A DNA stretch of 64,000 nt from Candidatus Shapirobacteria bacterium (lineage in GTDB: Bacteria > Patescibacteriota > Microgenomatia > UBA12405), in assembly GCA_041665485.1 (NCBI GenBank), contig JBAYIT010000002.1, positions 5,867-69,866 of the forward strand, given 5' to 3'. Numbering within the stretch: the stretch's first letter is position 1; every line of letters begins with the position of its first letter. Shown in pieces: positions 12,753 through 52,059 of the stretch. The notes below the pieces were generated by a model. It saw only the letters and a program-made list of their open reading frames with translations, was not told the DNA's origin and did not search any database. The position numbers were made by a program, and so were the translations under genes.

Positions 12753-13409
12753 ATGTTGTTCAAATTTGTTTATCTCATTTTCATTATTAGTCCCTTTTTT
12801 GTTGGCAAGATTTACCCGTTTTGGGTTTATTTACTCATCATCTTCGCCTACATTGCCTCCTCCAAATCAAAGTTATTCATACTTCCAGTCATTTTTGTAC
12901 TATTCTTTGTCAATCTTCATGTTAACAGTCTTTTTGGTCTAAGTCGTCAGTTAAAACCAGATTTCAATCTAGAAAAAATAAACATCACCAGTCCAATTAG
13001 TATTCAAAAAGTAGCCCAATATTACTACGACGACGTCTATACACCCTATCGAATCCGCCACTTTCTTTATAGCCAATGGCTCACCGTTTTTGTTTGGATC
13101 AGTTCTGTTTTAAAATTATTGTCACCGATATTTTGGGTAAGGTTAATGGGTTTTAGTGGTAGTATCCTTATTTTTTTAGGTGTTATCGAATACATTAAAA
13201 ATGATTTTTCACCAAGATATTGGTTCTGGTGGTTTTTTATAATAATTTTTAGTTCCGGGCTCGGAATTAATCTTGACACCAGGAATTCTATTTTTCTCTC
13301 CCTACCCATACTAATAAATTTGGTAATCCTGGGTTTCAAGTCTAAACTATTTATTTCTATCCAAAAATATTGGTGGCTATTACTTTTTGTTGACTTCATC
13401 TTAAAATGA
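12753..13409 (+). CDS. Small integral membrane protein (about 6 TM), unknown function
   Basis: 218 aa and very hydrophobic. First gene after the divergent intergenic region 12639..12752. Confidence 0.45.
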   Translation: MLFKFVYLIFIISPFFVGKIYPFWVYLLIIFAYIASSKSKLFILPVIFVLFFVNLHVNSLFGLSRQLKPDFNLEKINITSPISIQKVAQYYYDDVYTPYRIRHFLYSQWLTVFVWISSVLKLLSPIFWVRLMGFSGSILIFLGVIEYIKNDFSPRYWFWWFFIIIFSSGLGINLDTRNSIFLSLPILINLVILGFKSKLFISIQKYWWLLLFVDFILK

Positions 13410-15001
13410 GTAATAAACACTTTGTCCTATTTTTAATTTTAATTTCCGTGTTCGGTTTTTACTTACGAACCAAAAACATAGCCACTAACCCGCCGCACTT
13501 GGGCAATGACGAAATCTCTATTGCCTTTGACAGCTATTCGATTAGAACCGTTGGCAAAGATGAACATGGTAGATCTTGGCCGTTATCTTTCATGTCCCAC
13601 CGAAGCTATAAGGCTCCTCTTTACGCCTATCTTAACACCCCGTTCAATTATATTTTTGGTAATAACGAGTATGGCATCAGAATGTTGTCAGCCATTTCCG
13701 GCACCTTACTAATACTTATTATTGGACTTCTCGGAAAAACTTCATCCAACACTTCCATCGGTATCTTAAGTGCCATTATTATTGCTATTACTCCAAAAGC
13801 AATTATGGCTTCCAGAATAGGCTATGAGGCTAATTTGGCCTTAACCATCATGTCTTTTGGCGTTTTAGCTATGATTTATTATCGATTTGCCAAAAAAACC
13901 ATTTGGCTCATTGTCGCCGGGGTGTTTTTGGGATTATCTGTCTGGGGTTACCATACTCAATGGGGTCTGGCTCCAATGTTAGCTTTCTGTTTACCGATGC
14001 TCTTTAGACCTAAAATCAAATTTACCAAATGGTGGCCAACGTGGATATTGTTAGTGGTCATTGTTTTTCCGATTTATCTTGATTTTTACCAAACCCAGCT
14101 TTCTGACTCACACAATCGGGCCAGCTCGCAAATTTGGTATCAAGATGGTCAACTTAATGACTATCTCAAAAATTCTCCAGACAATAAAGTTAAAAAAATC
14201 GCCGTCTTACTTATTTCTCCGATCAATAATTATATTGAGCATTTCAGCTTTGACACCCTTTTTGGTGACGGTTTGGGTATGTTCGAACGAACCTCACCGC
14301 TTGAATTTGGCTGGTTTTTACTTCCCTGTTTACCATTGCTAATTGTCGGGCTAATCAAAGTTAACACAATCTTTGGTGATAATAAAAATTGGCTTCTATT
14401 ATGGATGGCTTTGTCCCCAATTATCCCTGCCACCACTTACGGTGGGGTTGCTGCCGTCAGAAATCTCTCAATTATGGTGCCACTATCGATCATCACAGCT
14501 GGTGGCTGGTGGTATCTGAAAAAACACAAACCAATAATTTTTCTTTTAACCTCGTCTTTACTTCTTCTCCATCTTTTAATTTTTCTCCCCACCATCTTCG
14601 TTCATTTTCAAAAAAGTTCTGGCAATTATTTTCAGTTCGGATACAAGCAATCATGGGAAAAGATAAAACCAGTGGTCAAAAACTACCAACATGTTATTGT
14701 TGAGTCGAGATTCGGTCGCTTTGGTCAATTCGTCGGTGTGCCACACTTGTACTTTGGCTATTTTGGTGCTTTTCCAGTCGAGGCCATGCAATCCAAAACC
14801 AACGAAAACGGTCGAATGAAAATTGACAAATTCGAATTTGGTCACGTTGATTGGATGGTAGAAGAAATTCAGCCTAAATCGATCTATGTTGTTTCCACCA
14901 TTAATCCCATTGTTGCTAATGCTATTGGTAAACTAAATCAAATTGAAGAAATAATAACTCCCGATAATCAATCTCAATTTTTAATCTATGCCACCAAATA
15001 A
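13406..15001 (+). CDS. ArnT/PMT-like GT-C membrane glycosyltransferase (paralog 1)
   Basis: N-terminal TM helix then 'NPPHLGNDEISIAFDSYSI...GRSWPLSF'. The D-E loop motif is characteristic of the PMT_2/ArnT family. Conserved C-terminal domain 'FGYKQSWEKIKPVVKNYQHVIV...YFGYF'. Confidence 0.7.
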   Translation: MSNKHFVLFLILISVFGFYLRTKNIATNPPHLGNDEISIAFDSYSIRTVGKDEHGRSWPLSFMSHRSYKAPLYAYLNTPFNYIFGNNEYGIRMLSAISGTLLILIIGLLGKTSSNTSIGILSAIIIAITPKAIMASRIGYEANLALTIMSFGVLAMIYYRFAKKTIWLIVAGVFLGLSVWGYHTQWGLAPMLAFCLPMLFRPKIKFTKWWPTWILLVVIVFPIYLDFYQTQLSDSHNRASSQIWYQDGQLNDYLKNSPDNKVKKIAVLLISPINNYIEHFSFDTLFGDGLGMFERTSPLEFGWFLLPCLPLLIVGLIKVNTIFGDNKNWLLLWMALSPIIPATTYGGVAAVRNLSIMVPLSIITAGGWWYLKKHKPIIFLLTSSLLLLHLLIFLPTIFVHFQKSSGNYFQFGYKQSWEKIKPVVKNYQHVIVESRFGRFGQFVGVPHLYFGYFGAFPVEAMQSKTNENGRMKIDKFEFGHVDWMVEEIQPKSIYVVSTINPIVANAIGKLNQIEEIITPDNQSQFLIYATK

Positions 15002-15800
15002 AACATCTCTCTCCATCATCATCCCCACCTGGAACACTGCCGAAATCACCCTTCGTTGTGTCAATAGTATTGTCAAACATCTTGGTAAGTTAGTCGAAAT
15101 AATTGTCGTTGATAACGGCTCTACCGATAGTACCCAAGATGTTTTAAAAAAAACTACCGTTAAATATGTTAAGTTAGACAAAAATTACGGTTATGCCACT
15201 GCCTGCAATGCCGGCGCTAAAGTAGCCACTTCCGAATATCTTCTATTTTTAAATTCAGATATGGAACTTATCGACAAGGAAGTTTTGGCCATGGTCAATT
15301 TTTACAAAAAAAATATTAATTGCGGTCTAGTCGGCCCACAATTTTTCAACCCTGACCTCTCTCCCCAAGGCTCTGTCTTCCCACCCCAAACTCCACTCAA
15401 TGCATTTAGGGAATTTTGGTTACACCAAAAAACCTTCTCTAAGTATTTCCCAAAAACCGATAAACCGGAAAAAGTCTGGGCCATTTCCGGTGGTGCTGTT
15501 TTAATTTCTAAAAAAAATTACCAAAGTGTTGGCGGTTGGAGCCAAAAATATCACATGTACTACGAAGATTTGGACCTTTGTCGCCAAACCAGAAATAGGG
15601 GATTCTCAATCTATTATTTTCCAAGTTGCCGCTTTATCCATCGTCATGGTGCTAGTGGTGCCAATATCGCCAATGCCAATAACCAATGGCGTCGCCTAAT
15701 TAATGGCTCAAAAATCTATCATGGTCTATTTTTGCATTACCTCATTAACCTAATTATATGGTCGGGCCAAAAATGGCAGAAAACTTTTTTAAAAACTTAA
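14988..15800 (+). CDS. GT2 family glycosyltransferase
   Basis: 'LSIIIPTWNTAEITLRCVNSI...IIVVDNGSTDST' and 'YYEDLDLC'. Confidence 0.75.
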   Translation: MPPNKTSLSIIIPTWNTAEITLRCVNSIVKHLGKLVEIIVVDNGSTDSTQDVLKKTTVKYVKLDKNYGYATACNAGAKVATSEYLLFLNSDMELIDKEVLAMVNFYKKNINCGLVGPQFFNPDLSPQGSVFPPQTPLNAFREFWLHQKTFSKYFPKTDKPEKVWAISGGAVLISKKNYQSVGGWSQKYHMYYEDLDLCRQTRNRGFSIYYFPSCRFIHRHGASGANIANANNQWRRLINGSKIYHGLFLHYLINLIIWSGQKWQKTFLKT

Positions 15801-17119
15801 CCTTAACTAAAATTATTTTAACTGCCTTAATTATAAGGCTCCTATTGCTACCTTGGGTCTATCATGGTGATGTTACTGTTACTTATTGGTGGGGAAAATT
15901 TGCCTCTGAATTTGGTTGGCGGGGCTATTACGACTGGCTTAATTTTGGTGGCTATGGTCGACCTGATCAACCAATGCTAAACATTTATTATGATTGGAGT
16001 GTTAGACAAATCTATTTATTTTTCTATGACATCTTTTGGTTTCTTAACACACATATCAGCTTATTCCCATCAAAATTTATGCAATGGTACTTCATCAATG
16101 GTAATCAAATCCTACTCAAACTGCCAATGGTTTTTTCAGACATCTTCCTTATTTTTTTAAGCTACAAATTTTTTTTAAAGATTTTTAACAGCCAAAAAGC
16201 AAAAATAATTGCCATTGTTTTAACTTTTTATCTTCCTCTTATCTACAATAGCGCTGTCTGGGGTAGCGGCGACAGCATCATTAATTTATTTGGTCTGCTC
16301 TGTGTGTACCTTGTTTGGCAAAAAAAATACATTTCCAGCGCATTATTTTTTCTTCTATCAATTTTATACAAGTCCTCGCTTTTAATTTGGATTCCCATAA
16401 TAATAGTTTCACTTATAAAAAATAATATAAAACGAACAGAAATATGTAAAGCTACGATATTTTTCCTATTATTTATATCTTTAGTTAGCTTCCCATTTAC
16501 TCCATTAGGAATAAACCCATTGATTTGGTTTTTTCAAACGATGCTCACTAAGATTTTACCCGGTGCCATGCCTCAACTTACTGCCAACGCCTTTAATTTT
16601 TGGGCTCTACTATACGGTCTTAAGCCTCAACTTGACGAGATTATCTTGTTTGGTGGTTTTTCCGCCAGAATGATTTCTATCGTTTTATGCTTTATTGGTT
16701 ATCTTATTATCTGTCGTAAACTATACCTAAATTATAATCTTAAAAATCTCCTGTTATCTCTGGTAAACATTTCCCTTGTCACTTTTGTTTTTATGACCAG
16801 AATGCATGAACGCTACACCTTTCCTGCCCTAATTCCTCTCCTCATCCTTTGTTTTTACGACAAAAAATTCATCAAATATTTTGTTGTTTTAACAATCACT
16901 CATCTTTTAAATGTTTACAACTGGTGGTGGGTTCCAACCATCCATCCTCTAGAAGATTTTTTGTCTAATAATATTGTTATCAAAACAATTAGCCTAACTA
17001 ATCTCTGTATCACTCTATTACTATTATTTTTTAATTTTTCAATACCTATCGAAGCGGATAATTCTCCAATTCGATCCAGAAACGGTCTGATCAAATCTAA
17101 TAACTCCCGTATTAAATAG
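15758..17119 (+). CDS. Polytopic integral membrane protein, candidate GT-C family glycosyltransferase
   Basis: 453 aa with many TM segments. First loop reads 'LPWVYHGDVTVTYWW'. The 3' end overlaps the convergent gene 17039..18406 by 81 nt. The start may be M6 at 15773. Confidence 0.55.
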   Translation: MVGPKMAENFFKNLTLTKIILTALIIRLLLLPWVYHGDVTVTYWWGKFASEFGWRGYYDWLNFGGYGRPDQPMLNIYYDWSVRQIYLFFYDIFWFLNTHISLFPSKFMQWYFINGNQILLKLPMVFSDIFLIFLSYKFFLKIFNSQKAKIIAIVLTFYLPLIYNSAVWGSGDSIINLFGLLCVYLVWQKKYISSALFFLLSILYKSSLLIWIPIIIVSLIKNNIKRTEICKATIFFLLFISLVSFPFTPLGINPLIWFFQTMLTKILPGAMPQLTANAFNFWALLYGLKPQLDEIILFGGFSARMISIVLCFIGYLIICRKLYLNYNLKNLLLSLVNISLVTFVFMTRMHERYTFPALIPLLILCFYDKKFIKYFVVLTITHLLNVYNWWWVPTIHPLEDFLSNNIVIKTISLTNLCITLLLLFFNFSIPIEADNSPIRSRNGLIKSNNSRIK

Positions 17120-18406
17120 CCTCATTTGTACCGATGGGTCACCCCTTAATAATTTATCATCACCCTCCTGAGTAATTACATATAAATTGTCAGAAACAGA
17201 GTATTCGTCTATTGATCTTATTCTAACGTCATTCACCAACAATATGTCCCGATATTTTACTCCAAAACTATTTATATCATTACTTTGTAAAACAGCTAAA
17301 TTTGGATTCTTAAGTTCATTATCAATAATGTCTTGAGCAATTATATTGGTTATGCGCTTGGCAAAATAAGCACTGTCATCCGGTATCTTCCCAAATAGGT
17401 AATTTAAAGAGACGGGAAGATTGATGACAACCATCAGAAAGAATATAATTGGTTGAACCCATCGCCATATTTTTTCTCTTGGTAAAATCAGCCACAGATA
17501 CCAAGGGATCAGCGCTCCAATAAAATAGTGGCCCTGAGGCGATTTTATAAAACCAACGGCAATAAACAACGACAATACTGGTGTCAATAATAGTAAGTTT
17601 TTCCTATTAAAACGAATATCATTTACCAACAAAGGCAAACAACAGATCAATATCCAGGCTCTTGTTAACAAGAATTTCAAACCAACCGATAAAGCCTCAA
17701 AATTAAAATCAAGAGTGGCTGAAGATTGTTTGTATAGTATTGTTCGAGACAAAAACAAGCCTGGTGGGTGAAAAAAATCGAAGGTTAAGAAAATTAATAT
17801 CGGTATAGAAAATCCTAAGATAAATAGAATTTTGTTTTTTGCTGAAAACAAAAACAAGGCCGATGGTATGATTGCCAAATAGTGCAGGTGTGACGTAAAA
17901 CCAAATAAAACACCTGCCAGTAAAGTTAACAGATTTTTTTTAGACATTAATAAAAAATAGCCCCCTGCCATCAATGCCGGAATTAGATTAGGATTCCACG
18001 CCCATCTTGACGACAACAAATATGGGTACCAAATAACTAACAATAGACAAGCCAAATATGTTAGTCGTTTGTTTGTTAAGTACGTAGTTATAATCAATAT
18101 CAATAGGCCCACAATACTTATAAATGCATTACCTATAGTTGGTGATACCGGCGTGAAATTAAATAAAAGGGCAAAAGGCATTATCAAGTAGTAACTTAAA
18201 CTACTGTAAACCATATTGCCATCTTCTGACATTGGACCTATCAACGTAATATCTTTATCAACCCAATACTGGTGAATTTTAACTAAATCAGAACTCTCAT
18301 CTCTGTTAAAACGTAACTGCTTTTCCAGGTTATAAAATCTGGTAAATAAAACCAACGCAAACACCATGATAACAAGTCCATATCGATTTATACTGTTAGA
18401 CTTCAT
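17039..18406 (-). CDS. Polytopic integral membrane protein, candidate GT-C family glycosyltransferase
   Basis: 455 aa. TM1 is followed by 'NLEKQLRFNRDESSDLV' (an acidic D-E loop), then multiple TM segments and a soluble C-terminus. Last gene of the minus-strand operon 24655->17039. Confidence 0.55.
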   Translation of the reverse strand: MKSNSINRYGLVIMVFALVLFTRFYNLEKQLRFNRDESSDLVKIHQYWVDKDITLIGPMSEDGNMVYSSLSYYLIMPFALLFNFTPVSPTIGNAFISIVGLLILIITTYLTNKRLTYLACLLLVIWYPYLLSSRWAWNPNLIPALMAGGYFLLMSKKNLLTLLAGVLFGFTSHLHYLAIIPSALFLFSAKNKILFILGFSIPILIFLTFDFFHPPGLFLSRTILYKQSSATLDFNFEALSVGLKFLLTRAWILICCLPLLVNDIRFNRKNLLLLTPVLSLFIAVGFIKSPQGHYFIGALIPWYLWLILPREKIWRWVQPIIFFLMVVINLPVSLNYLFGKIPDDSAYFAKRITNIIAQDIIDNELKNPNLAVLQSNDINSFGVKYRDILLVNDVRIRSIDEYSVSDNLYVITQEGDDKLLRGDPSVQMRLFNTGVIRFDQTVSGSNWRIIRFDRY

Positions 18407-19980
18407 TTATGACCTAAATAAAATATAGGGTTAGCATAGGTATTTAATATCACTTTTTCTATTTTGATGCCCTCCGGTTGATCGTAGCCATTTCTTTCAT
18501 ATGCTACCAAATACAGAGTATTACTTTCGGCCAAATTTGGGTTGAACCTGTCTCCAAAATTAACAAAACAATATCTCTTTTCCAGGCAAAAATCACCTTG
18601 ATCGTCTATTCCAAAGACCAATCTTGGATCATATTTATTCCAAAACAGAAACCTAACTAGTGTCGGCTCATAGGTATTGTCCATAATAATCTTCCTATAT
18701 TTATCTTTGTTTAGTAAAACATAACTCATTGCTTCTTTGTAGCCACTGTGCCACCATCGCCACGATTCGTTTCGATAATGGTTCCAATAATAAAATTGGT
18801 AATTTATTAGTTCAGTGAATAATAATAATACAACAAAAATCTTGGCTATTTTATTAATTTTGACAAAACCATATCCAGTCAACCAAACCAGGGGAAAAAC
18901 CATTAAAAATAATCTCGAAGCGTGGTTGTAACCATCGATTGTCAATGCCGATGCTACTGGTGAAATCAACAACAGACCAATTAACCATCGAGCCCAACTT
19001 TCCCTGGCTCTTATTAAATAAGCCACCCCATAAACCAATAATGGCAATGTTATCCAAAACATATTACCAACTTGATGCAGTGAATGTCTAAATGTAATAT
19101 CTCCTTGTCCAAACAAAAAGGCAGAACTAAAAGCGTTTGTGTAGTTGAACAATATTTTTTTTGTCGATAACGTAAATTTATTGTAAAAAATTTTACCCAG
19201 AAGCTTGTTCTCCGTTGCATTTCTATATTTTTCCACTTCAGCGACAATCTCTTTATTGCTAATCACCGACATTGTTTTAAATCTATCAGCACCGTGTCCT
19301 TGGATAATGTGATAGGCGATTGGCAAGCTGGTCAGAACAACAACCAACAACAATAAAGCAGTTTTTGAACGATTAATCCTGATAAATCCAACTGTTAGTA
19401 AAATTATTAATGGAGACAGGACATTGGCAATGCTGTAAACATAAAAAGAAAGACCAAACAATATCCCAGCTAGAATAAGGCAACGGGTGTTATTTGTAAC
19501 TTTAGACATAATCAAATAGTGAATACCGGCAAATAGTACTGTCATTAATAGAGTAAGTTCAAACCCAGATCGACTATACTGAATATGCCAAGGGGTAATG
19601 GCCAGTAAAAAGATACTAATTAATTTGACTTTTTTGTCTACCCCAATTAATCCCAATACTAAATAAAAAAACAAAATACTTGTCATCCCAAAAAAAACCG
19701 AGGTCATCCTTACCCCCCACTCATTTAATCCGAATAACTTAATGAAGGGAATCATCGCGTATATCAGACCTGGGGCTCGCCATTCCGAAAAACTATGAAT
19801 ATACGTTGGCAATAAATTTCCCTTATAGTCTCGCCCAGTTGTTAGCAACGAATAAGACTGATATCCAGCATCGACTTCGTCACCAAATAGCTCAAGGTAG
19901 TCTAGCCTATAAACCCTCAGTAAAAAGGCTAATAATAATGTGAAAATTAATACCCAATTCCTAGCCAATATTTTTACCAT
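18403..19980 (-). CDS. ArnT/PMT-like GT-C membrane glycosyltransferase (paralog 2)
   Basis: 'LELFGDEVDAGYQSYSL...GNLLPTYIHSF' D-E loop. C-terminal domain 'WHSGYKEAMSYVL...RFLFWNKYDP'. The ORF extends to 20064, but M29 at 19980 abuts the upstream gene's stop and gives an N-terminal length like the paralogs. Confidence 0.65.
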   Translation of the reverse strand: MVKILARNWVLIFTLLLAFLLRVYRLDYLELFGDEVDAGYQSYSLLTTGRDYKGNLLPTYIHSFSEWRAPGLIYAMIPFIKLFGLNEWGVRMTSVFFGMTSILFFYLVLGLIGVDKKVKLISIFLLAITPWHIQYSRSGFELTLLMTVLFAGIHYLIMSKVTNNTRCLILAGILFGLSFYVYSIANVLSPLIILLTVGFIRINRSKTALLLLVVVLTSLPIAYHIIQGHGADRFKTMSVISNKEIVAEVEKYRNATENKLLGKIFYNKFTLSTKKILFNYTNAFSSAFLFGQGDITFRHSLHQVGNMFWITLPLLVYGVAYLIRARESWARWLIGLLLISPVASALTIDGYNHASRLFLMVFPLVWLTGYGFVKINKIAKIFVVLLLFTELINYQFYYWNHYRNESWRWWHSGYKEAMSYVLLNKDKYRKIIMDNTYEPTLVRFLFWNKYDPRLVFGIDDQGDFCLEKRYCFVNFGDRFNPNLAESNTLYLVAYERNGYDQPEGIKIEKVILNTYANPIFYLGHK

Positions 19981-20552
19981 ACCAAAAACCCAACCAATAA
20001 CACAGGGAGTATTATTATTGACTTTTGCATTAGTTGGCCAGTCTTTGATAAAGCGTATTGCCAATCACCACCCCACTTATAGTAAATTACCATATCAAGC
20101 TTTTGTCCCCTAGTCCCGAAAGCCAATTTTCCATCAACTATTTTGGTAGGCAAAATTTCAACTATGTATCTTCTGTCTTTGGAATTAGTAATTGTTTGAA
20201 AATCAAGCCGAGCTCGACTAGTATCACCAAAGTTGAATCCGCTAAATAACTGACGATAAATCTCCAAACCACCACTCTCTCTGATTACAATCTCGAGTTG
20301 ATCTCTACTTTCCAAGTTTGGGTTCTTAAACAATACGTCAACCCGATTTAAATTGTCATAACTTGACACAAATTCCGATTTGAACAATGACATATCAGCC
20401 AGCCTAATAAAAGTCAATTCTAAATTACTATTATCAGCAATCGCCAACTTTGACGGTATCAGATTAACCAAAAAGAAAACCCCAAAGTAAGAAACCAAGA
20501 TCAACAGCCAACCAATGATAACTTGCTTTGATTTACTTTTTAAATTTTGCAC
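19974..20552 (-). CDS. Small membrane-anchored protein (N-terminal TM helix plus a soluble domain of about 150 aa), unknown function
   Basis: 192 aa. N-terminal 'VIIGWLLILVSYFGVFFLVNLI' is the only hydrophobic segment. Embedded between GT-C genes in one operon. Confidence 0.5.
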   Translation of the reverse strand: MQNLKSKSKQVIIGWLLILVSYFGVFFLVNLIPSKLAIADNSNLELTFIRLADMSLFKSEFVSSYDNLNRVDVLFKNPNLESRDQLEIVIRESGGLEIYRQLFSGFNFGDTSRARLDFQTITNSKDRRYIVEILPTKIVDGKLAFGTRGQKLDMVIYYKWGGDWQYALSKTGQLMQKSIIILPVLLVGFLVW

Positions 20553-21747: not shown

Positions 21748-21749
21748 TT

Positions 21750-24655: not shown

Positions 24656-24712
24656 CTTACACAGTATAAAACAACTTAGGACTCAATTTTGGTATAAAAT
24701 ATATAAGTTCCA
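24656..24712 (+). promoter_or_regulatory. Divergent intergenic region with candidate extended -10 element (tgGTATAAAAT) for the plus-strand block starting at 24713
   Basis: Only 57 nt between divergently transcribed operons. 'TGgTATAAAAT' lies about 18 nt upstream of the ATG with no SD, so a short or leaderless 5'UTR is implied. Confidence 0.3.
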
Positions 24713-26377
24713 ATGAAATTCAAGCTTATTCTAACATTCTTTACTCTTCTTATTGGCCTGCTTTTAGGTTACACCCGCTTTACTAATCTCAATTCTCTCC
24801 CCCCATCCCTTTTTTCCGACGAAGTCGACGCCCAATACCAAGCTTTTGTCTTTAATCACCTTAAAACCGATTACTTTGGCAACCGTTTCCCCGTCCATTT
24901 CCATTCTTTCGCCGATTGGCGTACCCCGCTTACTATCTACGTTACCGCTCTTATTCAATCAGCATTCCCCGATTTTACCGATATTTCCGTCAGATTGTCT
25001 TCGGCTATTTTTGGTATTGGCTTTGTTCTTGTCATGTCATTTTTTATCTATAAAGCCGTTTCTCCTATTTCCGGAGTAGTCTCCTTTCTTTTTCTTAGCT
25101 TCTCTCCCTGGTTAATCCACTATAGCCGAACTGGCTTTGAGGCCACCGGCATGCTTTTTTGTCTAAGTCTTAATTTACTATTTTTTTACTACTACACAAA
25201 AAAACATCGTCTCCTTTTCTTAACTTTTTCGATCGTTTTTTTAATTCTTTCTACCTACTTTTACAGTACTGCTAAGCTTTTTGCCGTTTTTATCATTGTT
25301 TCGGAGTTCTTTTTTTGGCGCTCCGATATTATTAAAATCAAAACCAGAGATATGTTCAAGGTTCTTATCATCTCTCTTATTGTTGCTCTACCGCTTATTC
25401 GAGACACCCTACTAAACCGCACCGGCTTCCGTTTCTCTTACATTAGTATTTTTTCTAATCCCCAAATAAGCAAAGAAGTAGATTTTTCCCGTTATCAGGA
25501 TATCCTCATCGACCACCCCCAAGAAATCGGTGTAGTCACCCCCTTCTCCTCTAAGATATTTCATAATCGCCTCCAATATCTCTGGCAAAATTTTTATCAA
25601 AACTACATCTCCTCTTTTTCCACCGATTTTCTTCTCCTAAAAGGGGACACCAATCTTCGTCAAGGCTTTGCTGATACCAGCCTCCTTTATCCTCTAGACC
25701 TAATCCTTTTACTTTTGGGAATTTATATTTCTTTTCGAAAATCCAAAAATAATTTAAACAAGTTTTTTCTTATTCTGCTTCTACTTTCTCCCATCCCTTT
25801 TTCTCTTACCCGTGACTCCCTCGGGCCCCACGCCACCCGTTTAATTCTTTTTTTACTTCCCTTTACCTATTTTATTTCCCAAGTCGGTCTTGTAATTAAC
25901 AAACGGCTTTTAATTCCTCTTACTGCCATTTATTTTATCTTTTTTCTAAATTTCTGGCATTACTATTCCCTTCATTATCCTCAAATTTCGGCTAGATTCT
26001 GGCACACTGGCATTAAAGAAACCGTTCTCCAAGTCGGTCTTTACCCCAACACCGATATCTACTTTAGTAATAATCCCGAGCCAATTCTCCCTTTCTTTTT
26101 ATTTTATTCCCGGTATCTTCCCCAAAATACTTCTATTACCCAAAATATAAAAAATATCTCTACTGATTTTTTTGATGGCGCCCGTCTTGGAGAACACTAC
26201 TATTTTGGCCATCTTAATTGGTCAAGTCCGCCGCCATCAGGATTGGTTGTTACTACCCAGGAAGAAGTTAAAAACAACTTCGATTTTGCCACTAATTATA
26301 AAATAATTCTAACTTTTGATAAAAAATACATCGAAGAGCCAACCTATCTTCTTGCCAAACCCATTAATGAAAACTAA
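24713..26377 (+). CDS. ArnT/PMT-like GT-C membrane glycosyltransferase (paralog 4)
   Basis: 'SLPPSLFSDEVDAQYQAFVF...GNRFPVHFHSF' D-E loop. C-terminal domain 'WHTGIKETVLQVG...PFFLFYSRY'. Confidence 0.7.
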   Translation: MKFKLILTFFTLLIGLLLGYTRFTNLNSLPPSLFSDEVDAQYQAFVFNHLKTDYFGNRFPVHFHSFADWRTPLTIYVTALIQSAFPDFTDISVRLSSAIFGIGFVLVMSFFIYKAVSPISGVVSFLFLSFSPWLIHYSRTGFEATGMLFCLSLNLLFFYYYTKKHRLLFLTFSIVFLILSTYFYSTAKLFAVFIIVSEFFFWRSDIIKIKTRDMFKVLIISLIVALPLIRDTLLNRTGFRFSYISIFSNPQISKEVDFSRYQDILIDHPQEIGVVTPFSSKIFHNRLQYLWQNFYQNYISSFSTDFLLLKGDTNLRQGFADTSLLYPLDLILLLLGIYISFRKSKNNLNKFFLILLLLSPIPFSLTRDSLGPHATRLILFLLPFTYFISQVGLVINKRLLIPLTAIYFIFFLNFWHYYSLHYPQISARFWHTGIKETVLQVGLYPNTDIYFSNNPEPILPFFLFYSRYLPQNTSITQNIKNISTDFFDGARLGEHYYFGHLNWSSPPPSGLVVTTQEEVKNNFDFATNYKIILTFDKKYIEEPTYLLAKPINEN

Positions 26378-27872
26378 ACGTCGGCTTATCCCAATCGTCT
26401 TAATAATCTGCCTCTCTCTTCTCTCCGTTTACCGGTTGTTGCGTCCTGGTTTTCTTTCTCTTCAAGACGATATGCATGTTTTTCGCTTACAGGAATTCCA
26501 CCAGTGTCTTATTGACGGCCAAATTCCCTGCCGTTATTCCACTACTGCCTCTTTCAATTACGGCTCACCCATTTTTAATTTCTACCCACCTCTTTCCTAT
26601 ATTATTCCCGAATTATTTCATCTTCTTGGTTTTTCTCTTGCCGACAGCATTAAACTCCTTCTCATTTTTTCTGCTGTTATCCGTGGTTTAGGCATGTACT
26701 TTCTTGCCGGTCCAGTTGCTGCCATTCTTTATATTTTCGCCCCTTACCAAGCCCTAAACACCTTTGTTCGTGGCGCTATTGCCGAAAACCTAGCCCTAAG
26801 CCTTCTGCCTTGGCTAATTCTGAGTTTAAAATATAAAAGATTTGCTTCCGCCACTCTCTTTTCAACTCTGCTCCTATTAACTCATCAACTTTCTATCATC
26901 GCCTTTCTGCCAATAATTGCCGGATTTTGCCTAATCGAAAAAATATCTTTTAAAAAATTAATAACTATTTCAACTCTTTCTCTTGGTCTTTCTTCGTTTT
27001 TTTTATTGCCCTCTATTTTCGAAAGGGGATTCACTACTAATAGCACTATGTTTACCGACTATTTTGATTATCATCTCCACTTTGTCAGTCTTTATCAAAT
27101 TTTTATCTCTCGCTTTTGGGGTTATGGTGCTTCCAATTGGGGAATAGGCGATGGCATGGGTTTTACTATTGGCCAAATTCAATTTATCATCCCATTTTTA
27201 CTTTTTTTATTTTCTCCAAAAAAGATTAAACTCAAAATTATCCCCTTACTTGGTCTTGCTCTTTTCTTTCTTTTCCTCACTCACCAACGTTCTACTTTTA
27301 TTTGGCAAGCCATACCTTTTTTGGCCTTTTTCCAATTTCCCTGGCGTTTTATTGGTCCAGCCGTTTTTCTGTTCTCTTATGCTTCAGGTTTAATCAAAAT
27401 TAATCGGTTGTTTATCATCCTCATTGCCGTCTTGGCCATCACCTCCAATATAAATTTCTTTCATGAAGACTTGTGGTATAAAAATCCAGATTTTCTCACT
27501 CAAAAATCAGAATCAGGTTTTCGTGATTTTTGGCCAAAATCCGGTAATCAATTTCCAGACAAACCCGCTCCTGCCACCACTGATGTTTCTAATTTCTCCA
27601 AAACCTCAAACCAAATAAATTTCACCTCCAATTTTGACAAGCCAACACTTACCGAATTGCCCTTAGTCTATTTTCCCGGCTGGAAAGCCACCATCAACCT
27701 TAGGCCCGCTAGTATTATCGTCAACCCTGATCTTGGCCAGATAAACCTTGATATTCCTGCCGGTAAAAACCAAATAAATTTAACTTTTGCCGATACTCCA
27801 ATTAGAAAAGCAGGTAACATTATTTCTTTGGGAACACTAGTTATTATATTAATAACCCTCCTACCACTATGA
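26367..27872 (+). CDS. Large polytopic membrane protein, GT-C-like family B (paralog of 1878..3581)
   Basis: 'LQDDMHVFRLQEFHQCLIDGQIPCRY...PIFNFYPPLSY' matches the motif of 1878..3581. The ATG at 26367 (MKTKRR) is preferred over the 26316 ORF start, which would overlap the upstream gene by 62 nt. Confidence 0.65.
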   Translation: MKTKRRLIPIVLIICLSLLSVYRLLRPGFLSLQDDMHVFRLQEFHQCLIDGQIPCRYSTTASFNYGSPIFNFYPPLSYIIPELFHLLGFSLADSIKLLLIFSAVIRGLGMYFLAGPVAAILYIFAPYQALNTFVRGAIAENLALSLLPWLILSLKYKRFASATLFSTLLLLTHQLSIIAFLPIIAGFCLIEKISFKKLITISTLSLGLSSFFLLPSIFERGFTTNSTMFTDYFDYHLHFVSLYQIFISRFWGYGASNWGIGDGMGFTIGQIQFIIPFLLFLFSPKKIKLKIIPLLGLALFFLFLTHQRSTFIWQAIPFLAFFQFPWRFIGPAVFLFSYASGLIKINRLFIILIAVLAITSNINFFHEDLWYKNPDFLTQKSESGFRDFWPKSGNQFPDKPAPATTDVSNFSKTSNQINFTSNFDKPTLTELPLVYFPGWKATINLRPASIIVNPDLGQINLDIPAGKNQINLTFADTPIRKAGNIISLGTLVIILITLLPL

Positions 27873-29464
27873 AAAAGTGGCCAAAATTTCTATTTGTCGT
27901 TATTCTTCTTCTATCCGCGTTTATCCGCTTCTATCAGTTAGATCATTTCCCTCCCAGCCCCAATTGGGACGAAGTTAGTCACGGTGTTAATGCTCAAAGT
28001 ATCTTAGAAACGGGAGCCGATCAATGGGGCCAAAAATTTCCTCTCTTCAATTTTCGTGCTTACGGCGATTATCCAACTGTCGCCAACATGTATTTCACTA
28101 TCCCTTTTATTAAAATCCTTGGTCTCAACACTTTATCTATTAGATTACCTTCGGCCATCTTTGGTTTTCTTTTCGTTCCTTTAATTTTCTTTTTATGTCA
28201 GATTTTGTTTGGCCAAACCAGAATCTCTCTCATCGCGATGTTTATTACTGCCATTGCCCCTTGGTCCTTTTTCCCTTCCCGCGCTGTTTTTCAATCAACT
28301 ACCGCCATTACTTTTCTTATCGCCGCCATTACTTTCTTTTTTTATTTTTATTATCATCATAAATCTTATCTCATATTTCTTAGTTCTCTCTTCTTAGGCT
28401 TATCCATGTACGCCTACCACAACACCAGGCTAATCGCCCCTTTGATCTTTGTCTATCTTTTTTGGTCAATCAAAAAATCATTTAAAAAAGTAGTTTTCCC
28501 TATCCTGTTATTTTTATTTTTTGCCGTCCCTTCTTTAATTAATCTTCTTTCTCCTGAATCCCGGGCCCGTGGTTATTGGGTTTCTTTAATTAACCCCAGT
28601 GCCATCAATTTAATCAACGAACAACGTCGGCTTTATGAAGGCCCACCAATTCTAAATTTGATCCTTCACAATAAAGTTACTTACGCCGTCCCTCAAATTA
28701 CCCTTAATTTCTTGAATTTTTTCAACCCCATTCCTTTATTTTTTACTGGTACCGGCCAATATCAATTCAATGTTGCCGGAAAGGGTCTCCTCTTTCCCGT
28801 TTGGCTTCCGTTTTTCTATCTTGGATTGTTATCTCTTTGGCGTCATCGCCAAAAACCATCTTATCGGTTTTTAATCTTTTGGCTTATTGTCGGCTTATTT
28901 CCTGCCATTATTACCTCCGGTGATTTTGCTTCCATCCGCGCCACCACTGCCATGCCTGTTTACCTTATTCTCACTGCCCTAGGCATCAATCAGTTTCTTT
29001 CCTCCCTTCCAATAATTCTTATCATTATTGCTTCACTTTTATCTTTTTCTAATTATCTTTATCTTTACATCACCTCTTACGCTCAAAATTACTCCCAATC
29101 TTGGCAATTTGGCTACCAAGAAGCCATAGAAATCATCAAACCCATCTACTCTAAGTACGACCATATCTATTTTACTAAAAAATACGGCGAACCCCATGAA
29201 TTCATTCTCTTCTTTTGGCCTTGGAGTCTCAAAAGCTTTCAGAATGATCCTAATTTAGGTTGGGACTATCATGCTTATTGGTATTGGGTCAACTCCTTTG
29301 ATAAATTTATATTCCTCAATGATTGGGAGATAACCAAATATTCTTTCCCCCCCAATAGTCTTTTGGTAACCTCTCCCCAAAATTATTCTGGCAAACCGGT
29401 TAAAATATCAGCAGTTAAGTTTCTTGATCAGTCGGTCGCTTTTGACATTGTCGGCTATGAATAA
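27869..29464 (+). CDS. ArnT/PMT-like GT-C membrane glycosyltransferase (paralog 5; first of three tandem copies)
   Basis: 'FPPSPNWDEVSHGVNAQSILETGADQWGQKFPLFNFRAYGDY' D-E loop. C-terminal domain 'WQFGYQEAIEIIKPIYSKYDHIYF...FILFFW'. Confidence 0.7.
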   Translation: MKKWPKFLFVVILLLSAFIRFYQLDHFPPSPNWDEVSHGVNAQSILETGADQWGQKFPLFNFRAYGDYPTVANMYFTIPFIKILGLNTLSIRLPSAIFGFLFVPLIFFLCQILFGQTRISLIAMFITAIAPWSFFPSRAVFQSTTAITFLIAAITFFFYFYYHHKSYLIFLSSLFLGLSMYAYHNTRLIAPLIFVYLFWSIKKSFKKVVFPILLFLFFAVPSLINLLSPESRARGYWVSLINPSAINLINEQRRLYEGPPILNLILHNKVTYAVPQITLNFLNFFNPIPLFFTGTGQYQFNVAGKGLLFPVWLPFFYLGLLSLWRHRQKPSYRFLIFWLIVGLFPAIITSGDFASIRATTAMPVYLILTALGINQFLSSLPIILIIIASLLSFSNYLYLYITSYAQNYSQSWQFGYQEAIEIIKPIYSKYDHIYFTKKYGEPHEFILFFWPWSLKSFQNDPNLGWDYHAYWYWVNSFDKFIFLNDWEITKYSFPPNSLLVTSPQNYSGKPVKISAVKFLDQSVAFDIVGYE

Positions 29465-31034
29465 AACAAAAATAATTTTATTCTTAATTGTTCTACTTGG
29501 TTTTCTCCTAAGATTCTACCGAATAGGGGAGTATCCTCCGCTTCTTTGGGACGAAGCCGCTCTCGGTTACAATGCTTATTCACTTCTTCAAACCGGAAGG
29601 GACGAACATGGTGCCTTTTTTCCATTAATTCTCAAATCTTTTGGCGATTACAAACCGGCCATTTATTCTTATCTTTCTATTCCCTTTGTCTTCCTTTTTG
29701 GTCTTAATGAAACATCTGTCAGGCTGGTTTCTATTATTGCCGGCTGTCTTTCCCCTTTGTTTTTGTACTTTCTTATTAATAAAATCGATTCAAAAAAACA
29801 GAAAGTCGCCTTACTATCAGCTTTAGTATTGGCTGTCACTCCTTTTGCTATCCACTTTTCCCGTGGCGCTTGGGAAACTAACCTATTGGTTTTTGAAATT
29901 ATTGTTAGCCTCTATTTCTTCTTTTCCCAAAAGTTTTTTCTTTCCGCTTTTATTCTTTCTCTTTCACTTTACACCTATCAGTCAGCCAAAATGCTTGTTC
30001 CCTTTATCTTCTTACCTCTGATTCTACAATCTCTGAAACAACACCCAAAAATTATCTTTACCAAGTTCCTCATCCCAATTCTTATCTTTTCTCTCCCGCT
30101 CCTATGTGGTCTTCTGTTTTCTCAAGACTCGGGTCGTCTTAAAGTCGTTAGTCTCTTTTCCTATCCTCAAAGCCAGGAAGAGATATCAGTTATCAAAAAC
30201 GAAACGGGAAACTTTGATTATTTGCTCTTCCACAATAAATATCTAAATTTTGGCCGCCAGTTTTTAACCCGTTACTTTAATCACTTTTCTCCCCGTTTCT
30301 TATTCTTTGATGGCGATTGGCAATCTCCCCGCCATAGCGCCCCTTACATCGGCGTCCTCCTCCTCCCCTCTACCTTGTTCCTAATTTTAGGACTGATTAC
30401 TAATTACCGTTTACCAATTACCAAATTATTCCTCTACTGGCTTCTTATCGCCCCCATTCCTTCTTCTCTCACCCGCGATCTCCTTTCCGGCGTCCGCTCC
30501 CTCTTTCTTGTCATCCCTCTCACTTATTTCACTGCCCTCGGTATCCGCCGGATTACGGATCACCGTTCACGATTCACGTATCTAGTTACTAGTATCATGT
30601 TTCTAGTATCTTTAATCTATTACTCCGATCTCTACTACAGCCATATGGTCAAAAAGTCACCTTTCGATTTTCTTTATGGTAATAAGGAAGTTGCCCAATT
30701 TGTCATTAACAACCAACAAAATTACGATCGTATTTATTATTCCGACTTTTATGGCCAACCTTACATCTTCTATCTTTTCTACTCCCAATATTCCCCCAAG
30801 AAATACCAAGCCAAAAATCATTTAAGTTTATCCGGGCCAGACATTGGACATGTTGAAAAAATCGACAATATTCTTTTTGCTTCACCCGATTTCAATTTCA
30901 TTAGAAATCAACCTCAAAAAATTTTAGCCATTTTTAGTTTTGACGAAGTAGAGAGGCAGGGGATAGATAAAAAATTATTAACCCCTATTTCTACTATTGG
31001 CAATATTACCACCTACTATGCCTACTCTAATTAA
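29457..31034 (+). CDS. ArnT/PMT-like GT-C membrane glycosyltransferase (paralog 6)
   Basis: 'YPPLLWDEAALGYNAYSLLQTGRDEHGAFFPLILKSFGDYKP'. C-terminal domain 'YGNKEVAQFV...YIFYLFYSQY'. The ORF begins at 29424, but M12 at 29457 (MNKTKIILF) is the likely start. Confidence 0.7.
   Translation: MNKTKIILFLIVLLGFLLRFYRIGEYPPLLWDEAALGYNAYSLLQTGRDEHGAFFPLILKSFGDYKPAIYSYLSIPFVFLFGLNETSVRLVSIIAGCLSPLFLYFLINKIDSKKQKVALLSALVLAVTPFAIHFSRGAWETNLLVFEIIVSLYFFFSQKFFLSAFILSLSLYTYQSAKMLVPFIFLPLILQSLKQHPKIIFTKFLIPILIFSLPLLCGLLFSQDSGRLKVVSLFSYPQSQEEISVIKNETGNFDYLLFHNKYLNFGRQFLTRYFNHFSPRFLFFDGDWQSPRHSAPYIGVLLLPSTLFLILGLITNYRLPITKLFLYWLLIAPIPSSLTRDLLSGVRSLFLVIPLTYFTALGIRRITDHRSRFTYLVTSIMFLVSLIYYSDLYYSHMVKKSPFDFLYGNKEVAQFVINNQQNYDRIYYSDFYGQPYIFYLFYSQYSPKKYQAKNHLSLSGPDIGHVEKIDNILFASPDFNFIRNQPQKILAIFSFDEVERQGIDKKLLTPISTIGNITTYYAYSN
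30551..30620 (+). repeat. Degenerate 7-nt periodic array at the homologous position of paralog 29457..31034
   Basis: gattacg gatcacc gttcacg attcacg tatctag ttactag tatcatg tttctag tatcttt aatctat. Confidence 0.6.
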
Positions 31035-32607
31035 AAACAATTTTTGGTTACTACTCATTATTTTTTTGGCCGCCGTCTTGCGGTTCTACAATATTGGTAA
31101 TTATCCTACTCTTAATCCCGACGAAGCCGCTCTTGGTTACAATGCTTACTCTTTAATTCAAACCGGTAAAGACGAACACGGCGCTTCCTGGCCTCTCCAT
31201 TTTAAATCATTTGGCGACTTTAAACCCGGAGGTTACGTCTATTTAGCTATCCCTTTTATTGCCACCTTTGGTCTTACTCCACTGGCCGTTCGTCTCCCTA
31301 ATCTTCTGCTTTCGCTTTTAACCATACTTTATTTCTATAAAATAGCTTTTTTGTTCACCAAATCGCGACAAATTTCTTTGATTTCAGCTTTGTTTTTAGC
31401 CATTAACCCCTGGCATCTCCATTTTTCCCGTGGCGCTTGGGAATCATCTTCTGCTCTGGCTTTTTTAGTTATTGGTAGCTACTACTTTCTTGTTCGTCGT
31501 TATTTTCTTTTTGTTCTCACTTTTGTCGCCTCTCTCTATCTCTACCACTCTGCCCGTATCGTTGCCCCACTTCTGGCCTTGTCATATCTTTTTATTCATA
31601 AATCATATTTCATAAATCATAAATCAAAATTAATTTTCCCAATACTTATCGGTATTCTCCTCACTTTCCCCGTTCTTTTCTCATTTCTTAAAAACGGTGG
31701 TACTACCCGTTTTGGCGGTGTTGGTTTAACTGCCGACACCGGCCCGTTATCCCGTTCTGAAGAACTTCTTAATCACCACATGAGTACCGCCCTGCCTTTA
31801 AGAATTCTTCATAATCGTCGGGTACTTTATCTTATGTCTTGGGGGCAAAAATATTTTTCCCACTTTGATCTCAATTTTCTTTTTATTAATGGTGATGAAG
31901 TTCCCCGTTCCAAAGTTCCCGATATGGGCCAACTTTACCTTCTTCAACTTCCGTTTCTTCTATATGGTATTTATATTTTCTTTCAATCTAAGATCTATCA
32001 TCTAAAATCTAAGATCTTTGTATTGTCTTGGCTTTTAATCTCCCCCCTTGCCTCTTCTTTCACTTTTCAAGCCCCCTCTGCCCTCCGCGCCCTACCCCTG
32101 GTTATCCCCCTCACTTTTCTCTCCGCCCTCGGCTTTTATTGGTTTACGTATCACCTATCACGTACCTTGTACCTTGTACCTTGTACCTTGTACCTAGTCT
32201 CTTGTCTCTTCTATCTTGATTCTTATCACAATCATTATCAAAAACGCTATCCCTTTGCCTGGAATTATGGCTTTAGTCAAGTTATTCCTTACCTTAATTC
32301 CCAAAAAGACAACTATCAAAATATCTATTTTACTAACAAATACGATCAGCCCTATATTCTCTATCTCTTCTTTTCAAAGTATCCTCCGCAAAAAATTCAA
32401 TCGCAAATAAAACTCACCCCGCCCGATAAATTCGGTTTTTCCACTGTATCCCAAATCGACAACATCTACTTTGGTAAAATTGAGTGGGACAAAATTTCAA
32501 CTAACTCATTAATTATTTCTTCTCCAGACGAAAAAGCCCCAATTCCACCAATTAAAACAATTGAAGTTCAACCCAACAAAGCTGTTTTCAATATTTATCA
32601 AAAATAA
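31018..32607 (+). CDS. ArnT/PMT-like GT-C membrane glycosyltransferase (paralog 7); contains three heptanucleotide-periodic arrays
   Basis: 'YPTLNPDEAALGYNAYSLIQTGKDEHGASWPLHFKSFGDFKP'. C-terminal domain 'WNYGFSQVIPYL...YILYLFFSKY'. The ORF begins at 30997; M8 at 31018 is likely. Confidence 0.7.
   Translation: MPTLIKNNFWLLLIIFLAAVLRFYNIGNYPTLNPDEAALGYNAYSLIQTGKDEHGASWPLHFKSFGDFKPGGYVYLAIPFIATFGLTPLAVRLPNLLLSLLTILYFYKIAFLFTKSRQISLISALFLAINPWHLHFSRGAWESSSALAFLVIGSYYFLVRRYFLFVLTFVASLYLYHSARIVAPLLALSYLFIHKSYFINHKSKLIFPILIGILLTFPVLFSFLKNGGTTRFGGVGLTADTGPLSRSEELLNHHMSTALPLRILHNRRVLYLMSWGQKYFSHFDLNFLFINGDEVPRSKVPDMGQLYLLQLPFLLYGIYIFFQSKIYHLKSKIFVLSWLLISPLASSFTFQAPSALRALPLVIPLTFLSALGFYWFTYHLSRTLYLVPCTLYLVSCLFYLDSYHNHYQKRYPFAWNYGFSQVIPYLNSQKDNYQNIYFTNKYDQPYILYLFFSKYPPQKIQSQIKLTPPDKFGFSTVSQIDNIYFGKIEWDKISTNSLIISSPDEKAPIPPIKTIEVQPNKAVFNIYQK
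31596..31637 (+). repeat. Degenerate heptamer array (TCATAAA-like x6)
   Basis: tcataaa tcatatt tcataaa tcataaa tcaaaat taatttt, inside 31018..32607 (encodes 'FIHKSYFINHKSKLI'). Confidence 0.65.
31987..32021 (+). repeat. Degenerate heptamer array (ATCTAAG-like x5)
   Basis: atctaag atctatc atctaaa atctaag atctttg, inside 31018..32607 (encodes 'QSKIYHLKSKIF'). Confidence 0.65.
32149..32217 (+). repeat. Heptanucleotide-periodic tandem array including perfect (GTACCTT)x4
   Basis: tatcacc tatcacg gtacctt x4 gtaccta gtctctt gtctctt ctatctt, inside the ArnT-like paralog 31018..32607 (translated '...YHLSRTLYLVPCTLYLVSCLFYL'). Confidence 0.85.
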
Positions 32608-51794: not shown

Positions 51795-52059
51795 CAACCA
51801 ATATCTTGAATATATGAATTTAACCACCGACGCCAAGCGAGCTGTCTACGAACTAGTAAGTCCAGAAATAGGAAACAACAGCTACTTCCTCCGTCAATAT
51901 TTGTTTGGTATTTCTCAATACTTTTCCCACTTAAAAAACTTTCGCCAGTCTTTTAACCTCGACTTACTTGAATCCTCAAACACCAATCCAAAAATCAAGG
52001 CAGAATATTTACTCGACAACAACCGAATAATTTTGAATTTTATTAAAAAATCTTCTTAA
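51787..52059 (+). CDS. Small hypothetical protein (90 aa)
   Basis: ORF overlapping the upstream stop by 8 nt. No recognisable motif. Confidence 0.35.
   Translation: MNNNQYLEYMNLTTDAKRAVYELVSPEIGNNSYFLRQYLFGISQYFSHLKNFRQSFNLDLLESSNTNPKIKAEYLLDNNRIILNFIKKSS

Follow-up and report, generated by a model that had tools for sequence, protein, structure and literature searches.

What does a row of similar glycosyltransferases do in the small genome of an uncultivated bacterium? The question is raised by a stretch of 64,000 nucleotides (contig JBAYIT010000002.1, positions 5,867 to 69,866) from Candidatus Shapirobacteria, here called the window, which is densely packed with genes and almost wholly devoted to glycan synthesis. 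The Microgenomates, to which this organism belongs, have genomes of about 1 Mb and are uncultivated; they presumably live in attachment to other cells, and the chemistry of their surface is hardly known. Seven genes in the window, denoted A to G in their order along the DNA, encode ArnT/PMT-like enzymes of the GT-C type, and the last three, E, F and G, form a tandem triplet. We consider it probable that they constitute an outward-facing set of GT-C enzymes, with polyprenyl-phosphate sugars as donors, by which a surface glycan is built or decorated, the paralogs serving different positions or linkages. The enzymes fit the ArnT/PMT paradigm, with a canonical transmembrane (TM) region and C-terminal domain, and no new enzymatic principle emerges from them.

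An earlier reading of the bare DNA by a model, referred to here as the original prediction, had listed seven complete genes of the same architecture. All seven open reading frames (ORFs) were found intact at identical coordinates (Table 1), and in an independent assembly of this contig the genes were called with the same starts. In pairwise BLASTP comparisons the paralogs were similar far above chance (24–39% identity, E-values from 1e-15 to 5e-95), and all seven could be aligned end to end; the closest pair was F and G, at 39% identity. The strings quoted for an acidic D-E pair behind TM1 were all present, and the pair itself, D32/E33, is invariant in the seven (residue numbers throughout are those of the F protein). 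The C-terminal motif, 'W..G(Y)KE ... LF(Y/F)', is also real, with G408, F441, P447 and F474 conserved. The proposed P-L...S-F motif is likewise real: P56 is invariant, and 'SF' occurs in five of the seven copies. In public records the genes are already annotated in generic terms, with the NCBI product names 'glycosyltransferase family 39 protein' for A and 'phospholipid carrier-dependent glycosyltransferase' for F.

The Pfam gathering thresholds are 26.1 bits for PF13231 (PMT_2) and 22.7 bits for PF02366 (PMT). Six of the seven paralogs exceeded one of them: A, B, C, E and F for PF13231 (32.8–43.7 bits), and only F and G for PF02366, for which the other five copies fell below the threshold. 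Despite its sub-cutoff score, D is, to judge by its sequence, clearly homologous to its siblings, matching B with a BLASTP E-value of 5e-45 and retaining every signature residue described below. The Pfam match in the seven proteins was restricted to the N-terminal PMT/PMT_2 region. An NCBIfam scan yielded only weak, sub-threshold matches to Agl23 (TIGR03663), which were uninformative, and none to ArnT.

The fold was modelled with AlphaFold2 for F, using an alignment of 55 sequences (pLDDT 90.2, pTM 0.90). The model comprises TM1, an outer helical loop carrying D32-E33 and D49, six TM helices, a loop of 80 residues that contains short helices, a further four TM helices and a 124-residue α/β domain. 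There are thus 11 TM helices in all, in agreement with the TM1 and approximately ten following segments of the original prediction. A Foldseek search against the PDB gave 22 matches at E ≤ 1e-3, every one of them a GT-C protein. The top match was ArnT (5EZM/5F15; E 9e-6, TMq 0.53–0.56, about 600 aligned columns with 10–11% identity), followed by STT3/AglB/PglB, ALG9 (E 4e-5), ALG12 (E 2e-4) and Pmt4, while Emb and AftD were weak matches. Together with the Pfam matches, this fold supports the identity of the paralogs as PMT/ArnT-type GT-C proteins.

ArnT, the undecaprenyl-phosphate-L-Ara4N:lipid A transferase (GT83), is thus the best structural match over the whole length, and the proteins are of similar size. 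As is predicted for the paralogs, its N-terminus lies on the inside, its first outer loop is acidic and bears juxtamembrane helices, another, long loop on the outer side connects TM7 and TM8, and the C-terminus is formed by an extracytoplasmic α/β domain (PMC7801869). The two differ in that their identity is very low, with no match at the sequence-profile level, and in that ArnT has 13 TM helices rather than the 11 modelled here.

The PMT proteins (GT39, PF02366; yeast Pmt1/2/4 and bacterial Pmt) share with the paralogs the D-E pair in loop 1, which is a PMT hallmark, as well as the PF02366 matches of F and G (Table 1) and the fold, since Pmt4 and Pmt1/2 were among the Foldseek matches. On these grounds, the paralogs might instead be PMT-like protein O-glycosyltransferases that transfer sugars from polyprenyl phosphate to Ser/Thr residues of S-layer proteins, pilins or other secreted proteins, each copy serving a different sugar or protein substrate. 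The GT2 encoded directly after G points the same way: it is paralogous to the GT2 proteins of 6631–7599 and 8510–9292, and the nearest solved relatives of all three are the protein or peptide glycosyltransferases SunS and GmaR (E 9e-21 to GmaR for 6631–7599). However, the likeness of this GT2 to SunS and GmaR lies in its N-terminal part and is limited to the generic GT2 nucleotide-binding region. Furthermore, the PMT fold matches are partial (TMq 0.28–0.48), whereas the best match is ArnT; the Pfam scan found no MIR or PMT_4TMC domain in any of the seven, and their C-terminal domain is a different one. Protein O-glycosylation would also leave the 7–10 copies unexplained, given that PMT is present once per bacterial genome and that one PMT suffices in actinobacteria. 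Finally, the Wzx-like flippase, ABC-2 transporter, acyltransferase and many GT2 and GT4 genes of the window are the typical context of a polysaccharide cluster. On balance, we regard protein O-glycosylation as a serious but unlikely alternative to the assembly of a surface glycan.

The topology was judged from loop charges and conserved residues. In the 55 aligned sequences, short loops on the predicted cytoplasmic side have a net charge of +1.2 to +2.7 and almost no acidic residues, and both loop 1 (EL1) and the C-terminal domain are net negative. Among 362 family members, D32, E33 and D49 are 96–98% conserved (98% for D32/E33), and the residues conserved in at least 85% include R19, D32, E33, D49, R89, S135, R136, Y174, R227 and R347. 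The conserved polar residues are all found in predicted outer loops or at the outer ends of helices, as expected of one outward-facing active site. From the loop charges and the position of these residues, the D-E loop and the C-terminal domain are predicted to be extracytoplasmic, with the N-terminus inside. The original prediction had staked its case on an extracytoplasmic D-E loop and on significant matches to GT-C families, and both were borne out, the former at the level of prediction.

All seven copies look catalytically competent, and none looks decayed, because the signature residues are kept. This includes every one of them in B, while in A only R227 is replaced, by S. Between paralogs, EL1 is the most conserved part (40% identity, a ratio of 0.53 to the conservation among orthologs). 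Measured in the same way, divergence is greatest in the long outer loop EL4 and in the C-terminal domain (ratios of 0.31 and 0.39, respectively). Such a pattern would fit a shared catalysis with different acceptors, and with it the proposal of many acceptor or linkage specificities, although it is only suggestive.

The C-terminal domain was also modelled with high confidence when considered alone (AlphaFold2 pLDDT 91.8). It had no match to any Pfam family, and a profile of the domain found nothing at E ≤ 10 among all PDB sequences; Foldseek gave no significant match, with ArnT at E 3.8 and TMq 0.37. To this extent the claim of a new domain stands, there being no detectable match in sequence or fold. 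The further claim that canonical ArnT has no domain of this kind was mistaken as regards the architecture, since ArnT consists of a TM region followed by a C-terminal periplasmic domain (PMC7801869), and the domain here has the same position, size and α/β class. A similar arrangement is found in the GT136 enzymes, in which 11 TM helices precede a C-terminal periplasmic domain (PMC11127046). The domain may be either a diverged version of the ArnT periplasmic domain or a separate fold.

The word "module", used in the original prediction, does not describe it well. When 1.84 billion cluster representatives were searched with the domain profile, 2,062 proteins matched at E ≤ 1e-3, of which 588 also reached E ≤ 1e-10. 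The domain was located at the C-terminal end in all listed matches, and the full-length proteins had 505–634 residues, corresponding to an architecture of about 540 residues; the shorter matches look like metagenome fragments truncated at the N-terminus. It therefore belongs integrally to one large family and is not a mobile module, since it was seen only at the C-terminus and in this single architecture. Conservation within it is limited to the four structural residues of the C-terminal motif.

We then asked how widely the array is distributed. A scan of species-representative genomes gave at least 595 matching stretches, and the best 80 loci were compared; by their record titles, these belong to Shapiro-, Woese- and Amesbacteria and other Microgenomates, with some otherwise labelled. 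(Many records of metagenome-assembled genomes with the array, among them loci L005–L007 and L010–L014, bear the title "uncultured Gammaproteobacteria bacterium", a few others that of "Parcubacteria" or "Clostridia"; such labels are probably wrong.) Paralog F has more than 2,500 homologs, the best of which are mostly 50–57% identical over the full length, the named ones being from Shapirobacteria and Woesebacteria. Every locus of about 20 kb contained three to seven family members. The window paralogs are 40–61% identical to their orthologs elsewhere (up to 59% for C and 61% for G), compared to 28–39% to their best siblings. The order E-F-G was kept in nearly every locus with a long enough contig, the E ortholog immediately preceding F in almost all of them, and the C(-) D E F G arrangement of the window recurs in nine. 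B-like copies occur in 28 loci, and A is a variable member of the array, with an ortholog in only one of the 80. Since the orthologs are closer than the siblings and the order is kept, the duplications appear from the sequences to be ancient. The array is thus best seen as a hallmark of the lineage, with an order kept across Microgenomates, and not as a recent expansion in this genome; the local expansion originally proposed is in fact ancient paralogy.

The constancy of the triplet has a second possible explanation, namely that E, F and G assemble into a heteromeric complex, in the style of Pmt1-Pmt2 or EmbA-EmbB, that carries out a single step, so that the number of copies reflects the architecture of the complex and not a multitude of specificities. 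Besides the fixed order, there are coding overlaps of 8 nucleotides between E and F and 17 nucleotides between F and G, and other neighbours in the cluster overlap too; this suggests that translation is coupled and that the three GT-C proteins may form a complex. A relative of the family that lacks the D-E pair (23393–24655, see below) could be a non-catalytic partner. However, each of E, F and G carries the full catalytic signature, and the three form separate ortholog groups, as expected of separate active enzymes. A single-step complex is therefore very improbable in our estimation, although complex formation as such and separate specificities are not mutually exclusive.

Partner genes were counted in the 50 loci of at least 18 kb, in which E was present in 49 and F and G in all 50. 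The five genes that follow G recur with the triplet (Table 1). One of these, the soluble GT2 at 34434–35237, gave phmmer matches to the dolichyl-phosphate mannose synthase DPMS (5MLZ; 5.6e-8, residues 8–172), GtrB (3e-7) and ArnC (3e-6), and weak NCBIfam matches to PgfS, ArnC, PpgS and AglJ. It is the best candidate for a polyprenyl-phosphate sugar synthase, that is, for the enzyme that makes the donor, although the assignment is weak. A second, weaker candidate is the GT2 that overlaps the end of A, which gave weak matches to ArnC, PpgS, AglJ and DPMS among many others. The three paralogous GT2 proteins of 6631, 8510 and 32608 were rejected for this role because they resemble SunS and GmaR and not DPMS or GtrB, as was the GT2 with C-terminal TM helices (35234–36151), which is not DPMS-like.

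We infer the donor type, the acceptor and the role of the C-terminal domain from the homology, fold, topology, conserved residues and synteny described above. In the proposed mechanism, each paralog would be an 11-TM ArnT/PMT-like GT-C enzyme with its active site on the outer face of the cytoplasmic membrane, combining D32-E33 and D49 from the first outer loop with R136, Y174, R227 and R347 from later ones. The Dpm1/GtrB/ArnC-like GT2 of 34434–35237 would load a sugar onto polyprenyl phosphate in the cytoplasm, and a putative flippase would move the lipid-linked sugar to the outer face, where each paralog would add the sugar at a different position or linkage of the surface glycan. Synthesis of the backbone of this glycan, or of its lipid-linked precursor, would fall to the GT2 and GT4 enzymes encoded nearby, and export to the Wzx-like or ABC-2 transporters. 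The C-terminal domain would lie outside, above the TM core, and together with EL4 probably shapes the choice of acceptor. E-F-G, the Leloir glycosyltransferases and the radical SAM enzyme would represent a core pathway common to all Microgenomates, and A–D variable accessories. One may go further and suppose that E-F-G, the Dpm1-like synthase, three further Leloir glycosyltransferases and the B12-binding radical SAM enzyme make up a previously undescribed extracytoplasmic assembly line for a core envelope glycan of these ultra-small bacteria across Microgenomates, akin to the synthesis of mycobacterial arabinan or lipomannan or to the luminal ALG steps, in which the C-terminal domain is a new fold holding the growing acceptor; this is a tentative proposal, in which we have limited confidence.

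Several observations weigh against this mechanism. At the sequence level, a family profile found nothing at E ≤ 10 among all PDB sequences, ArnT included, which makes this a distant subfamily, and its activity is a predicted one, based on sequence and model. The NCBIfam matches of the candidate donor synthase are all far under their cutoffs, and chondroitin synthase has a marginally better score than DPMS. There was no match in the window to a GtrA-like or ArnE/F-like (EamA/SMR-type) flippase, and no initiating phosphoglycosyltransferase among the window ORFs scanned. The C-terminal domain contains no conserved polar residue at all, its fold match to the ArnT periplasmic domain is not significant, and the role assigned to it is purely conjectural. 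The acceptor could equally be a protein.

The logic of the proposed pathway can be likened to that of the mycobacterial Emb/Aft/Mpt enzymes, the luminal ALG enzymes and the Gtr-type systems (PMC11127046). The mycobacterial series (EmbA/B/C, AftA-D, MptA-C and PimE) also comprises several GT-C paralogs per genome that use polyprenyl-phosphate monosaccharides, made by a small GT2, each to form a different linkage of a wall glycan. The PpgS/Rv3779 pair offers a further parallel, in that the protein of 34434 weakly resembles PpgS. GT87 genes are found nearby as well. These enzymes nevertheless belong to other GT-C families and to another phylum and have no sequence orthology to the paralogs, and the C-terminal carbohydrate-binding domains of Emb and AftD are far larger. 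In the GtrA/GtrB/GtrC and GT136 systems, a GT2 lipid-sugar synthase is likewise combined with a GT-C enzyme that acts after export, and GT136 shares the arrangement of TM helices and C-terminal domain noted above (PMC11127046). These systems differ from the present one, for which no GtrA-like flippase was found in the window, in having a single GT-C enzyme, compared to three to seven per locus here, and in being serotype-converting accessories rather than arrays kept across a lineage. The luminal ALG pathway (ALG3/9/12, ALG6/8/10, Dpm1/Alg5) resembles the locus in its cytoplasmic GT4/GT2 set, Dpm1-like synthase and serial GT-C enzymes, of which ALG9 and ALG12 were fold matches, but its enzymes are of another GT-C subclass and other families, and no oligosaccharyltransferase was found in the window.

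That ArnT is the closest structure also raises the possibility that the enzymes modify membrane lipids or build lipoglycans, as do ArnT and PimE/Mpt, in which case they would decorate lipids scavenged from a host. This would be consistent with the GT87 (PimE-like) genes in the same window, and for a Saccharibacterium a proposal has been made of glycolipids resembling phosphatidylinositol mannosides, together with GT87 and Dol-P-Man synthases (PMC6031116). The window, however, showed no genes related to phosphatidylinositol. Going by the envelopes of the Candidate Phyla Radiation (CPR), lipid A is also not known to occur in this lineage. A lipoglycan is, moreover, one kind of surface glycan, so that this alternative is hard to tell from the mechanism above; as a separate explanation we find it improbable.

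The conservation of the GT-C triplet and its fixed partners in nearly all of the 50 long loci argues that the assembly of a complex glycan outside the membrane, out of lipid-linked sugars, is among the core traits of the lineage and not an accessory one. At least 36 of the approximately 56 genes in the window encode glycosyltransferases (about 15 GT-C, about 14 GT2 and seven GT4), a very high share for a genome that we take to be about 1 Mb, and an unusually large investment in the surface glycan. We found no prior description of GT-C arrays in Microgenomates or the CPR, which is weak evidence of novelty because the coverage of the literature was incomplete; what came closest was the glycolipid and GT87 proposal for a Saccharibacterium (PMC6031116). 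E, F, G and the GT2 of 34434 provide concrete targets for work on the surface glycan of Microgenomates.

Table 1. Coordinates of the paralogs, their partners and other features in the window (aa, amino acids; locus counts refer to the 50 loci of at least 18 kb).
Feature	Position	Strand	Remarks
Paralog A	13406..15001	+	531 aa; GT-C, PMT_2; PF13231 43.7 bits
Paralog B	18403..19980	-	525 aa; GT-C, PMT_2; PF13231 38.1 bits
Paralog C	21750..23396	-	548 aa; GT-C, PMT_2; PF13231 34.4 bits
Paralog D	24713..26377	+	554 aa; GT-C; PF13231 22.5 bits, under the 26.1 cutoff
Paralog E	27869..29464	+	531 aa; first triplet gene; PF13231 37.1 bits
Paralog F	29457..31034	+	525 aa; middle triplet gene; PF02366 41.1 bits, PF13231 32.8 bits
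Paralog G	31018..32607	+	529 aa; last triplet gene; PF02366 28.3 bits
C-terminal domain, example (residues 402-525 of F)	30660..31031	+	predicted extracytoplasmic alpha/beta domain
GT2 directly after G	32608..33390	+	260 aa; PF00535; homolog in 50/50 loci
GT4	33374..34447	+	PF00534; homolog in 47/50 loci
Soluble GT2	34434..35237	+	267 aa; homolog in 41/50 loci, 66% identity
GT2 with C-terminal TM helices (residues 220-292)	35234..36151	+	PF00535; 30/50 loci
B12-binding radical SAM enzyme	36148..37578	+	PF04055, PF02310; 28/50 loci, 62% identity
GT2 overlapping the end of paralog A	14988..15800	+	PF00535 97 bits
GT-C fragment	1..657	+	C-terminal 218 aa; different, rarer PMT_2 subfamily
Divergent relative	17039..18406	-	455 aa; 'NRDES' D-E after TM1; C-terminal soluble region
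TM-core relative	23393..24655	-	420 aa; without TM1 and D-E pair
PTPS_related + PMT_2 GT-C	1878..3581	+	31% identity to 26316-27872
PTPS_related-type GT-C, between D and E	26316..27872	+	called from 26367 on the same contig
GT87-type GT-C (PimE-like family)	674..1912	+	PF09594 27.7 bits (cutoff 25)
GT87-like paralog	20533..21747	-	25% identity, E 6e-17 to 674-1912; no Pfam match of its own
DUF2142 polytopic membrane protein	55491..57185	-	PF09913 111 bits

The original prediction had counted the fragment at the beginning of the window as an eighth copy. It proved to be a GT-C protein of another subfamily, related to the seven only at the profile level: it had no BLASTP match to them at 1e-3 and no Pfam match, but was reached by the seven-paralog profile (hmmsearch E 1e-7; hhalign probability 93.8%, E 1.7e-7). 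The match covers the final TM helices and, of the C-terminal domain, no more than its first helix and strand, and a comparison of the C-terminal domain profile with that of the fragment family was not significant (probability 3%). The fragment family is a separate group of 45 homologs, of which one has a PMT_2 match and two are named ArnT-like. We rejected the fragment as a true sibling on account of the absence of a BLASTP match and of a demonstrably shared C-terminal domain.

Beyond the genes listed originally, the window contains two relatives of the family and five genes that belong to, or are paralogous to members of, other GT-C Pfam families. The divergent relative of 17039–18406 was found with hmmsearch (E 2e-6) and hhalign (93.3% probability over residues 11–172). 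The TM-core relative of 23393–24655 matches profile positions 148–406 (hmmsearch E 1.5e-10), and its homologs adjoin C in 12 loci; with no D-E pair, it is possibly non-catalytic. The other five are the two PTPS_related genes, of which that between D and E has homologs in 27 loci, the two GT87-type genes and the DUF2142 gene, a family which we take to be part of the GT-C clan (CL0111).

The window also holds methyltransferases, an acyltransferase, a Wzx-like flippase and an ABC-2 transporter pair. In addition to the radical SAM enzyme after G, there is a second B12-binding one in the cluster, at 41321–42757(-), and the two may be sugar C-methyltransferases. Five membrane proteins had no Pfam family at E ≤ 1: those of 5001–6644, 11316–12638(-) and 15758–17119, and the small ones of 12753–13409 and 19974–20552(-). 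The proteins of 15758–17119 and 11316–12638 are paralogous (E 4e-17); homologs of the former occur in 32 related loci, and it weakly matches an NCBIfam model for "cell surface glycopolymer formation". The five are candidate polymerases, ligases or flippases.

In the polytopic membrane protein of 45977–47674(-), TPR repeats are fused to the C-terminal end, which gives it a TMTC-like architecture; the N-terminal portion matched the GT-C profile only weakly (domain E 0.001, hhalign probability 12%). At the end of the window, an unlisted ORF of at least 489 codons (62532–64000, running off the end) encodes a polytopic protein with an 'NWDDQ' motif, but without significant similarity to the GT-C family or to other window genes. 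The latter and the N-terminal portion of the former, together with 5001–6644, 11316–12638, 15758–17119 and 20533–21747, were rejected as family members because they had no Pfam match at E ≤ 1 or only a sub-significant hhalign match to the family. A CofD/YvcK-family protein (PF01933, 135 bits) is encoded amid the glycosyltransferases at 52043–53020(-). No Rfam families or tRNA genes were present in the window. The GC skew of the top strand is strongly negative, at -0.24 overall and -0.06 to -0.41 in individual 2-kb bins. It is similar for genes on the plus (-0.20) and minus (-0.24) strands, and is thus not linked to transcription; it looks like a mutational bias of the replication strands, of unusual size.

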